Part shown: one piece after another, positions 48,901-51,900 of the stretch
Layout: every line of letters starts with the position of its first letter
Position numbering within the stretch: the stretch's first letter is position 1
DNA from: Escherichia coli
GTDB lineage: Bacteria > Pseudomonadota > Gammaproteobacteria > Enterobacterales > Enterobacteriaceae
Direction: 5' to 3' (one strand)
DNA: 64,000 bases
NCBI RefSeq assembly: GCF_009931435.1
Contig: NZ_CP043414.1
Program-made: the position numbers

Positions 48901-51900
48901 CGCGTCGATGGGGTTGGAAACCATGCTCATTACCAGCCCGCGCATCACTTCGACAATGCCTGACGGCGGCGAAATATCACCCGCGCTACTGGACAAGTGC
49001 AGGGTAGAAGGGAAGGCAAAGCTGAAGACTACCGCGGCCAGAGCAGCAGAGAAGGTGCCCAGCAGATAGAGGAACAGAATAGGGCGAATGTTGGTTTTCT
49101 GCCCGTGCTGGTGGTTAGCAATAGATGCCATTACCAGCATCAGCACCAGAATCGGCGCTACAGCTTTCAGGGCACCAACGAACAAAGTACCTAACAGACC
49201 GACAGCTTCAGCCGCCGGTTTTGAGATCCATGCCAGAAGAATCCCCAGAACAAGGCCGACCAGGATTTGTTTTACCAGGCTGCCATGAGCCAGACGCCGG
49301 AATAGCCCCGGTGAACGTTGCGTAGTCATTTTTCGATCCTTTCATTGTGTTGTCGCACATCCCTGGTGCGTTCTGTCGACGCATCTTTCAGGATGTAACA
49401 AAGTGTTTGCAAGGTCGAGTATAAGGAAAGTTACAGCTTCGGGAAGCGAAAAATGCTGGATTTTAAAGAGAGGTCATATTTTGCAACTTAATGGTTACAT
49501 TTGTTTGACATAAAAATAAAGCCCAACGTGCGGCTTCCAGACTGATGACAACGTCAAAAAAGTACTCGGTCAGTCCCCTCTCCCTGGAAGAGAGAGGGAG
49601 AAAACGGTGCTCATGTTGATGACAAGGTACACGGCTTAGGCAGATTAAAAATCATCCCACCCGCTGCTTATCATGCCGATAATTCACCCAGGCGTTGATA
49701 ATAAACGTCATCACCAGAATGCCAAACACCACGCCCAGCGAAACGGCGATCGGAATATGGTAGAAATCGACAATCAGCATCTTGATACCGATAAACACCA
49801 GAATCACCGCCAGACCATATTTGAGCATCGAGAAACGTTCTGCTACGCCCGCCAGCAGGAAATACATCGCACGCAGGCCGAGGATCGCAAACAGGTTTGA
49901 GGTCAGCACAATAAACGGATCGGTGGTCACGGCGAAGATAGCCGGAATGCTATCCACGGCGAAAATCACGTCGCTCAACTCCACCAGAATCAGTACCAGC
50001 ATCAGCGGCGTGGCATACAACAAACCATTCTTACGCACAAAGAAATGCTCGTTGTCGATGGTGTCGGTCATGCGCAAATGACCGCGCAGCCAGCGCACCA
50101 GCGGCTTGTCACCAATACCTGATTCATCTTCATGAGCCAGCGCCATCTTCACGCCAGTAAACAGCAGGAAGGCACCGAAGATATACAGGATCCAGTCGAA
50201 CTGCGAAATCAGCCAGCTGCCAGTGAAGATCATGATGGTACGCAGAACAATCGCCCCGAGTACGCCATACACGAGCACGCGGCGTTGTAATGCCGCCGGA
50301 ACAGAGAAATAGCTGAACAACATCAGCCAGACGAAGACGTTATCGACCGCCAGTGATTTCTCAATCAGATAACCCGTGAGGAAGGCCAATGCCTGAGGGT
50401 CCGCGACTTCGCGCCCCTGTGTCTGCGCCAGATACCACCAGAAAGCGGCATTAAACAATAACGACAGTGTCACCCAGACCAGCGACCAGGCCGCAGCCTG
50501 TTTCATGGTCATGGCATGTGCCCCGCGACGCCCCTGCAACAACAGGTCGATAGCCAGCATAATGACGACAACAACAGCGAATCCGCCCCATAGCAACGGC
50601 GTGCCGACAGTATTCATAGAAGTTCCTTACACATAAAAAAACGGCCAACGTCGGAAGACGTCAGCCGCTGCTTTTTATGCATAGACCTCGCCTTCCGGCA
50701 AGGTCTCACTTACAACAAAAAAGGAATACGTCTGCGTATTCCTTTCGGGTTGCCCGGTGACCGGATGTGGTTTTTCACACATCGTAATGACGATCGACCG
50801 GCAATGAAGTTACTCCCCTTTGCAGGTAACAAAGTATGACAGACCATTCGGTCAGTCAATGGTCTGTTACATCCCTTTTACACTGTTTTACTTTGGCTAT
50901 TATAGTTTTACGCTATCTGCCGGAAAAATCACCCCGGTCTGGCGGCGGATCTCGGTCAGCAGCCTGGCGGTGATACGACTGACCGCCAGCCCTGGATGAT
51001 CTACCAGATGTTCATCCACCAGGGTAGCGAACAGCTCTGCTTCGTACAGCATGGTATTAATATGCTGCGGTTGGGTAAGATCCTGCATCTGGCTGCCGCG
51101 CGGCACATAGCAAACTTTCTGGCATTCAGACAGTTTTTCAATCACCAGCGATCCCGCTTCGCCCTGAATCTCACTTGCCAGCACAGAATCACTGACCTTT
51201 GAGTGCTGCAAGGTAACGCTGAAATCACCGTAATCCATCACCACCACGCCGTGGGCATCCACACCACTTGCCAGCAAACTGGCGGTTGCCTGCACGCTTT
51301 TCGGTTCACCAAATAACGCCACCGCCGACGCCAGACAGTAAAAGCCGATATCCATAATTGAACCGTTGGAGAATGCCGGATTGAAGGTGTTGGGATTCTC
51401 GCCGTCCAGATAACGTTGATATCGCGAGGAATATTGGCAATAGTTGAAAAAGACTTTACGCAATTTGCCAACTTTCGGCAGTACCTGGCGTAACAAATGG
51501 AAATTCGGCAGGCTGGCGGTTTTAAATGCCTCAAACAGCACCACCTGATTTTCCCGCGCACAGGCAATGGCGGCATCCACTTCCGCCAGATTCGACGCCA
51601 GCGGTTTCTCGCAAATCACATGAATTTTATGGCTAAGGAAAAGTTGTGTCTGGGAAAAATGCAGGGCATTCGGGCTGGCAATATACACCGCGTCAATGGC
51701 ATCGCTTTCTGCCATCGCTTCCAGCGATGTAAACAGATGCTCGACAGAAAAATCATTGGCGAAGTGCTGGGCCTGTTCAAGGCTGCGGGAATAGACAGCG
51801 GTTAACTTGTATTTACCGCTCTCATGGGCGGCCTCGACGAACTGGCGGGTGATCCAGTTCGTGCCAATCACAGCGAAACGTATCATAACGCGTGGATACT

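Follow-up and report, generated by a model that had tools for sequence, protein, structure and literature searches.

The gap between ygjR and alx (50618-50899, 282 nt) in the 64-kb stretch of Escherichia coli DNA analyzed here, referred to below as the window, very probably contains the leader of the alx riboswitch, also known as the pH-responsive element (PRE) or SraF, which belongs to the three-way-junction subclass of the yybP-ykoY Mn2+ riboswitches. We are also highly confident that this leader controls the translation, and in part the transcription, of alx, the gene downstream of it, whose product is a TerC-family protein annotated as "Mn(2+) exporter Alx". A first-pass annotation had proposed a riboswitch upstream of alx in a gap of roughly 280 nt. 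Both statements were borne out, as the gap measures 282 nt, the leader differs by 1 nt from the PRE/SraF of E. coli K-12 and the comparative analysis recovers the published fold. Biologically the element is nothing new. The alx riboswitch is already known and has been dissected by genetics, kinetics, co-transcriptional probing, single-molecule FRET (smFRET) and crystallography; for the K-12 element, counted among the yybP-ykoY Mn2+ riboswitches and known to respond to pH, a separate crystal structure is available, PDB 9JGM (PMC12153347, PMC12934788).

Read from the ygjR stop codon, the gap contains a candidate CpxR box, a hairpin enclosing the -35 element of the alx promoter, the transcription start site (TSS), the aptamer and an expression platform with two terminators (Table 1). 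These 282 nt would thus pack three layers of alkaline and envelope-stress control. The interval 50618-50866, originally given for the leader together with a preceding hairpin, mixes two things: 50618-50823 is indeed transcribed leader, whereas 50824-50867 is promoter and hairpin.

The alx leader and its fold

Leader positions are counted from the TSS, so that nt n corresponds to window position 50824-n on the minus strand. We set the TSS at G50823 because GpC is the initiating dinucleotide of the native alx promoter (PMC9472077) and because the T-runs, counted from this G, fall at nt 102-107 and 183-190, in agreement with the termination sites described at about 110 and 190 nt (PMC12153347). 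From G50823 to the ATG at 50617 a single nucleotide out of 206 differs from K-12, a C instead of an A at nt 54 (window 50770). This position is located in the capping loop of P3.2, outside L1, L2 and L3, and the aptamer is identical at 126 of 127 nt. An assignment of the substitution to the pH-sensing "L2 capping loop" was considered and rejected, L2 being the junction strand nt 18-22. Four more substitutions with respect to K-12 are intergenic and precede the TSS, two in the hairpin loop (50852 and 50850) and the others at 50873 and 50898. None of these differences would be expected to have functional consequences. The TSS, the three-way junction, L1, L2, L3, the P4 and P6 terminators, P5 and the Shine-Dalgarno (SD) sequence are all those of the K-12 riboswitch, and a covariance model built from the 71 alx-type aptamers described below (model R1) places the K-12 aptamer at L001:1875-2001, equivalent to window 50823-50697.

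Both gene names are those given in annotated E. coli genomes matching at 100% identity. A 401-nt query over the gap was 100% identical in 18 complete genomes and 95-99% identical in about 5400 others, always between ygjR and alx, and the synteny of these two genes was the same in 5419 of 5426 E. coli genomes. The RefSeq records of K-12 and of 12 listed matches contain no riboswitch feature at the alx locus.

We collected 80 alx loci across the Enterobacterales and aligned 71 distinct aptamers, from Escherichia to Yersinia, Serratia and Pantoea. The box mentioned in the first-pass annotation reads GGGGAGTA on the minus strand at 50818-50811; it was found upstream of alx in 77 of the 80 loci, and TCATTAC lies exactly 28 nt downstream of it in most of them. 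Among the aligned aptamers GAGACCTTGCC is invariant, and L1, L3 and GAGACCUUGCC are invariant or nearly so. The distance from L3 to GAGAC is variable among loci, with aptamer lengths from 96 to 158 nt. RNAalifold, run on the 71 aptamers with no structure supplied, predicted P1.1, L1, P1.2, P3.1, an unpaired L3, P3.2 and P4, and no P2. The pairs of P1.1 are 1-126, 2-125, 4-124, 5-123, 6-122 and 7-121, P1.2 joins nt 14-17 to 113-116, P3.1 joins nt 23-27 and 29-33 to 61-70 and P3.2 joins nt 41-45 to 56-60. P3.1, P4 and P1.2 abut directly, and L3 remains unpaired between two covarying helices, with no bulge in the 3' strand. A hand-made model that paired UUGCC with GGCAA and left G69 bulged was rejected, since RNAalifold and the covariation favour C23-G70...U27-A66, with G71-C75 in P4. 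The comparative fold is the published alx architecture, that is, a three-way junction without P2, with UCAUUAC as L3 (the alx-like L3 consensus) and a terminator inside P4 (PMC12153347).

In this fold 97.7% of the cells were paired, double changes affected 15 of 32 pairs and 151 cells were compensatory. The covariation score was 0.242, against 0.126 in shuffles (0 of 500 reached the observed value) and at most 0.073 in slid registers. Covariation is carried by P3.1 (double changes in 6 of 10 pairs), P3.2 (4 of 5) and P4 (5 of 7 pairs at its base). Substitutions that track base-pair covariation and not codon structure are hard to reconcile with the idea that the leader encodes a small protein. 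Actually, the six-frame list does include an open reading frame (ORF) of 49 amino acids at 50710-50859 (minus strand), but its TTG start is upstream of the TSS, inside the promoter, and the range of aptamer lengths, with indels that are not multiples of three, contradicts conservation of the frame. We give this possibility practically no credit.

Downstream, the expression platform also resembles what has been described. The terminator scan called both P4 and P6 as intrinsic terminators, with T-runs ending at nt 107 and nt 190. The first is formed by the hairpin AGGAAUACG-CAGA-CGUAUUCCU followed by UUUUUU (50722-50717), and a K-12 Term-seq 3' end at 3238482 corresponds to leader nt 109, equivalent to window 50715. 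The minimum free energy (MFE) structure of the full leader (-95.1 kcal/mol, z -7.55) contains P5, P6 and a masked SD, with GGGAGU (nt 7-12) paired to ACUUCU and CUU (nt 15-17) paired to AAG. CCUUGC pairs with GCAAAGG in the aptamer fold and is part of P5 in the full-leader MFE, as befits a switch helix with two alternatives. Among the 71 platforms P5 is conserved, mostly invariant or with one-sided changes, P6 is conserved with double changes in 2 pairs, and AAGGA is conserved across genera. As a prediction, the MFE structure reproduces the published OFF conformer (PMC12153347).

The terminated leader transcripts of about 110 and 190 nt (SraF) might also act in trans as a small RNA (sRNA), besides or instead of the control in cis. 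SraF is the name under which the element was originally discovered, as an sRNA (PMC9472077), and a strong Term-seq 3' end at nt 109 and two efficient intrinsic terminators also speak for it. However, the U-run of P4 is present only in some genera, and P4 varies freely in length and sequence, so that the 110-nt product is not conserved. The conservation is fully explained by aptamer and expression platform, and the cited literature reports no target or Hfq-dependent function. We consider a role in trans improbable.

The riboswitch acting in cis would work as follows. Transcription would begin at G50823 from a sigma-70 promoter with its -35 in the loop of the upstream hairpin and with the CpxR box at -68 to -54. 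In the aptamer, P1.1-L1-P1.2 would form one leg and P3.1-L3-P3.2 the other, and both would meet P4 at a junction containing the 5-nt L2. In the OFF state (low Mn2+, neutral pH) the 3' strand of P1.1 and L1, GAGACCUUGCC, would be captured in P5, the terminator P6 would form and the freed 5' strand (GGGAGU..CUU) would pair with the SD region; transcripts would then stop at about nt 110 or 190, or stay untranslated. In the ON state alkaline pH would raise cytoplasmic Mn2+ and sensitize the aptamer via L2 and L3, Mn2+ would bridge L1 and L3, and the legs would dock, with P1.1 stabilized, P5 blocked and the SD exposed. Mn2+ binding, the pH effect and the ON state are carried over by analogy from the literature on the near-identical K-12 sequence. 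There, translation of alx is induced 68-fold by alkaline pH and 21-fold by Mn2+ (PMC10197570), a switching model with P5, P6 and the ribosome-binding site has been proposed, and alkaline pH alone cannot switch the alx RNA, Mn2+ binding being required (PMC12153347). Docking followed by smFRET, the Mn2+-bound crystal structure 9JGM and pH coupling through L2 and L3 have also been described; in this 2026 model L2 is a pH-sensing capping loop, and C19.G23 closes a 3-nt loop in 9JGM, in a numbering that is higher by one than the numbering used here (PMC12934788).

Table 1 Features of the alx region, in window coordinates
Feature	Position	Strand	Basis and remarks
alx riboswitch aptamer, nt 1-127	50697-50823	-	Three-way junction: P1.1, L1, P1.2, L2 linker, P3.1, L3, P3.2, P4
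P1.1 switch helix, 5' strand, GCAAAGG, A3 bulged	50817-50823	-	nt 1 is the TSS, G50823
GGGGAGUA box	50811-50818	-	G6-G7 close P1.1; in the metal-binding loop L1 the 5' strand is G8-A13; invariant in 71 aptamers
L2 junction strand CAUUG, nt 18-22	50802-50806	-	In place of helix P2; RNAalifold; G22 invariant
P3 arm	50754-50801	-	P3.1 (nt 23-33 with 61-70), L3, P3.2 (nt 41-46 with 55-60), 8-nt capping loop (nt 47-54)
L3 loop UCAUUAC, nt 34-40	50784-50790	-	7-nt asymmetric bulge between P3.1 and P3.2; metal-binding core with L1 by analogy
P4, nt 71-112, with embedded intrinsic terminator ("site B")	50712-50753	-	Terminator scan, covariation
L1 3' strand GAGA (nt 117-120) and P1.1 3' strand CCUUGC (nt 121-126)	50698-50707	-	RNAalifold; invariant
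P5 hairpin (OFF state), nt 118-141, AGACCUUGCC-GGAA-GGCGAGGUCU, 10 bp	50683-50706	-	Full-leader MFE; matches P5 of PMC12153347
P6 intrinsic terminator ("site D", about nt 190), AGCGGCUGACGUC-UUCC-GACGUUGGCCGUU then U-run	50634-50669	-	Terminator scan
SD AAGGA (50628-50624), spacer, alx ATG (50617-50615)	50615-50628	-	OFF-state masking in MFE
alx core promoter	50831-50859	-	-35 TTGACT (50859-50854); -10 TACTTT (50836-50831, 17-nt spacer) or TG-n-CATACT (50841-50833)
Perfect 10-bp inverted repeat, 9-nt loop	50839-50867	-	-44 to -16 of alx TSS; candidate ygjR terminator or 3'-end hairpin
Candidate CpxR box GTAAAACAGTGTAAA (GTAAA-N5-GTAAA)	50877-50891	-	-68 to -54 of alx TSS, between ygjR stop and hairpin
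alx ORF	49652-50617	-	ORF list
ygjR ORF	50900-51904	-	ORF list; stop codon TAA at 50902-50900, also in annotation

Covariance models and the relation to mntP

Several results weigh against the assignment of the leader to the yybP-ykoY family or inform it poorly. The check suggested in the first-pass annotation, a search with the Rfam yybP-ykoY covariance model, was run with RF00080 of Rfam 15 ("Manganese", gathering score 45 bits) and gave literally the outcome that had been named there as a refutation. There was no match at E<=1 on 48000-54000 (6 kb), none at E<=10 on 401 nt or on the bare 141-nt aptamer, and none at gathering thresholds over the whole 64-kb window. Regarding the covariation, P1.1 and P1.2 never vary, so that it is silent on the switch helix; in the expression platform double changes occur in only 2 of 17 pairs, the rest being nearly invariant and hence uninformative; and the pairing GGGAGU/ACUUCU that masks the SD uses spacer sequence that varies between genera. 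Finally, model R1, made from alx-type aptamers only, found no match in the mntP leader with default filters, and the match obtained with the filters off was marginal (6.7 bits, E 0.098 in 321 nt) and not significant alone.

The negative result with RF00080 does not carry the weight that had been given to it. The alx leader of K-12 MG1655, used as a control and the reference molecule of the alx literature, gave no RF00080 match at E<=10 either, and 0 of 20 alx-type leaders from other genera were detected. Since all of these are missed too, the lack of a match is a blind spot of the model and not evidence against a riboswitch. RF00080 misses the whole alx-type three-way-junction subclass, and relying on the absent match would wrongly discard a real, experimentally proven riboswitch. 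The K-12 mntP leader (L002:4462-4558), also used as a control, scored 41.6 bits (E 1.5e-8), below the gathering score; a search at gathering thresholds would leave both yybP-ykoY family members of E. coli unannotated. R1 scored 58-61 bits on held-out leaders bearing insertions.

The best Rfam match covering the whole aptamer was RF02617, SSRC10 ("Streptococcus sRNA 10"), at 50690-50830 on the minus strand (18 bits, E 0.17). With GGGAGUAG, CGUCAAUA and GAGAC in it, the SSRC10 consensus resembles a yybP-ykoY element, and a riboswitch of this kind may have been entered in Rfam as an sRNA. The link was not confirmed by the paper on the S. pneumoniae mgtA riboswitch, where SSRC10 is unmentioned. 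Other weak Rfam matches (STnc370, STnc240, Spy392987 and similar) were discarded, as they covered only terminator-like hairpins and were far below their gathering scores.

With mntP and the canonical family (RF00080 and the L. lactis and X. oryzae crystal structures) the alx leader shares the L1 loop, made of 5' GGGGAGUA and 3' GAGA-CC and closed by P1.1. The family signature at L1, 5' GGGGAGUA(G/A) opposite 3' (G/A)AGA-CC between P1.1 and P1.2, is found here at 50818-50811 and 50707-50702, and the mntP sequence used in the comparison is UUUGGGGAGUAGCC...GGCGAGACCAUAUG. Common to both types are also the 7-nt L3 bulge, the P4 hairpin and the order of the helices (P1.1, P1.2, P3.1, P3.2, P4), as well as a P1.1 3' strand shared with the expression platform, the control of a Mn2+ exporter and a translational ON switch (PMC12153347). 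In contrast to the canonical four-way junction, alx has a three-way junction without P2, a variant accepted in the literature as part of the yybP-ykoY family (PMC12153347, PMC12934788). L3 is UCAUUAC instead of ACAUACU, and the alx type is restricted to the Enterobacterales (PMC12153347). An intrinsic terminator in P4, the pH sensitivity and the lack of detection by RF00080 also set alx apart. With its filters off, the best match of R1 in mntP was exactly the mntP aptamer, with L1, P1.2, P4 and GAGACC aligned in register. Related as they are, the two types are almost invisible to each other's covariance models, since P2 has been lost, L3 diverges and P3.2 and P4 are long and variable.

These differences could also be read as a sign that the leader is a stand-alone pH-responsive element, as in the 2009 "PRE" view, in which the kinetics of RNA polymerase pausing alone would set the fold and the resemblance to GGGGAGUA would be superficial. 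RF00080 detects no alx-type leader, there is no P2 and so no four-way junction, L3 is not ACAUACU and the alx-type model barely recognizes mntP. However, both strands of L1, the 7-nt L3 and P1.1, P1.2, P3.1, P3.2 and P4 follow each other in the order of the family, and the regulated gene is a Mn2+ exporter. Furthermore, this view is contradicted by the published Mn2+ requirement (PMC12153347), the 21-fold induction by Mn2+ (PMC10197570) and the Mn2+-bound structure 9JGM (PMC12934788). We regard it as very unlikely.

Hairpin, promoter and candidate CpxR box upstream of the leader

A perfect hairpin begins 32 nt past the ygjR stop codon, with arms ACAGACCATT (50867-50858) and AATGGTCTGT (50848-50839) and the loop at 50857-50849. 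The first-pass annotation had noticed it as a perfect 9-bp hairpin just after the ygjR stop. It is there, but has 10 bp, one pair having been clipped by the interval end at 50866, and while the "ygjR terminator hairpin" is a real hairpin it is not separate from the regulatory region as had been thought. It encloses the -35 of the alx promoter: TTGACT is contained in the loop and 5' arm, and the 3' arm extends into the TG/-10 region.

In the most likely reading, ygjR transcripts would carry the hairpin as a 3'-end RNA stem, which would limit read-through into the riboswitch. As RNA it has a folding free energy of -13.0 kcal/mol (z -4.3), a stability matched by 0 of 200 shuffles. When perfect hairpins were counted over the whole window (arms of 10 bp or more, loops of 3-15 nt), there were 8 where 0.83 would be expected, with no more than 2 in any of 30 shuffles; 2 of the 8 are in the gap. 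This background was obtained by direct count, the output of the repeat finder being swamped by self-overlapping palindromes. The hairpin past ygjR resembles intrinsic terminators in being a stable perfect stem that comes after the stop codon of a co-oriented gene and precedes a U-rich stretch, and other gene-end hairpins of the window share this rare class with it.

For comparison we used 57 promoter regions, chosen only by their common TTGAC frame. In the E. coli register 72.3% of the cells were paired, against 31-42% in slid registers. There were 40 double-change cells compared to 23.2 in shuffles (reached by 0 of 500), and the covariation score was 0.231 compared to 0.189 (1 of 500); the number of pairs with double changes (6, against 5.6 in shuffles) was not significant. 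The center of the arms is swapped among genera as GACC/GGTC, GGCC/GGCC, GGAC/GTCC, GAGC/GCTC and GAAC/GTTC. That complementarity is kept through these swaps favours selection on the stem over selection on a sequence recognized by a protein.

There are points against a terminator. Unlike typical intrinsic terminators, the hairpin has few G-C pairs (4 of 10), a 9-nt loop, an overlap with the downstream promoter and an interrupted, offset U-tract starting about 6 nt past the stem (CAUACUUUGUU), which is not canonical. It was not called by the terminator scan, and Klebsiella, Raoultella and Kosakonia do not have the repeat. No ygjR 3' end appears in the searchable Term-seq tables (PMC7815308), which may cover only 5'UTR and internal ends. 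An outward extension of the hairpin to 15 bp, up to the U-rich tract, was considered and discarded, as the outer pairs are weakly conserved and present in a subset of the sequences only.

The inverted repeat could instead act as DNA, either as an operator for a dimeric transcription factor or as a structural feature of the promoter. Its span from -44 to -16, enclosing TTGACT, is a typical repressor position, the palindrome is perfect whichever strand is read, and the two strands fold with similar energies. Sequence conservation is fair in the outer (CAG/CTG) and inner (CATT/AATG) portions of the arms, and both a canonical U-tract and a terminator call are lacking. Against this, the central arm positions change and yet stay complementary, with double-change cells and pairing in excess of the controls, and a U-rich stretch is present within 4 nt of the stem (CAUACUUUGUU; AUAUUUUGUU in most genera). 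We found no known factor for the palindrome, and part of the conservation of the 3' arm may reflect promoter elements such as the TG of an extended -10. A role as DNA seems to us rather unlikely, and an RNA stem of ygjR is preferred.

Tentatively, one possibility is that the hairpin is a bifunctional terminator-promoter module, in which the RNA would end or stabilize the ygjR transcripts, the loop in the DNA would hold the -35 of alx and the U-rich tail would double as the -10 region. If true, alx mRNAs would begin precisely at +1, while a 5'-extended read-through RNA would add sequence beside P1.1 and could misfold the riboswitch. No description of such a module was found in the searchable literature. 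In ygjR read-through RNA, just upstream of the alx TSS, GUAACAGA (50825-50832) can pair with UUUGUUAC (50864-50871), a longer-range alternative fold of -18 kcal/mol for the 57-nt stretch. This pairing shows GUAAC/GUUAC swaps in a few genera, and its conservation appears inconsistent by eye.

The core promoter of alx was not called by a consensus promoter scan, and its probable hexamers (Table 1) were assigned from the TSS. In the 57 sequences TTGAC and an A-T-A...TTT block are invariant or nearly so, at a fixed distance from the TSS. Upstream of it, GTAAAACAGTGTAAA is the only exact match to GTAAA-N5-GTAAA in the 64-kb window, with 0.10 expected, and the GTAAA repeat at this position is conserved across genera. 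alx has been described as a CpxR-activated gene, with GTAAA-N5-6-GTAAA as the CpxR consensus (PMC9600279). From its sequence and position GTAAAACAGTGTAAA would be the CpxR box of the alx promoter, which had been missed in the first-pass annotation. As in other CpxR-activated promoters, an exact consensus box is found upstream of the core promoter; published coordinates of the alx box were not found in the cited literature. In E. coli a third GTAAA is located about 20 nt further upstream, inside the last codons of ygjR, and in other genera ygjR stops within the first GTAAA (GCG-TAA-A).

Two further promoter-like sequences are found next to the ygjR stop. A perfect TATAAT on the minus strand (50899-50904) overlaps the stop codon, and on the plus strand 50877-50906 is a 10/12 promoter-like site (TTTACA-18-TATAGT) pointing back into ygjR. 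The plus-strand site is what the GTAAA repeats and the TATAAT give in reverse complement, and the A/T-rich repeats probably account for both sequences.

Variant leaders and other elements of the window

Some of the leaders collected have been modified by insertions or deletions. Escherichia albertii NBRC 107761 (L004, about 400-580) has an insertion of about 177 nt inside P4 with two REP/BIME-like palindromes. It is flanked by a duplicated P4 terminator hairpin, whose upstream copy has 2 substitutions and no U-run, and R1 scores the 5' part of this leader with 60.8 bits. Repeat elements are also found inside P4 in Siccibacter colletis (L013) and Enterobacter pulveris (L034), and between the P6 terminator and the SD in Phytobacter diazotrophicus (L033) and Erwinia persicina (L035). 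The repeats found in alx leaders, GGCGGCAAG...GAATC.CC.GGAGC.TAC...AGTAAGTGAC.GGGGTGA, are presumably ERIC-like elements. No recognizable alx leader was found in Rouxiella aceris (L077). In Atlantibacter sp. RC6 (L028, about 592-615) the aptamer core is deleted and L1 is fused directly to P5 (GCAAAGGGGAGTCACTTCCTTGCCGGAAGGCGAGAC), with an R1 score of 19.4 bits. The related A. hermannii (L029) has kept the full aptamer.

Elsewhere in the window, Rfam matches at gathering level were RNase P RNA at 13521-13897 (plus strand, 319 bits), the REP-derived naRNA4/CssrE at 57714-57795 (plus strand, 69.8 bits) and ES036/CssrF at 32811-32851 (minus strand, 38.4 bits). A perfect 10-bp hairpin (13909-13934) is located directly after the RNase P RNA.

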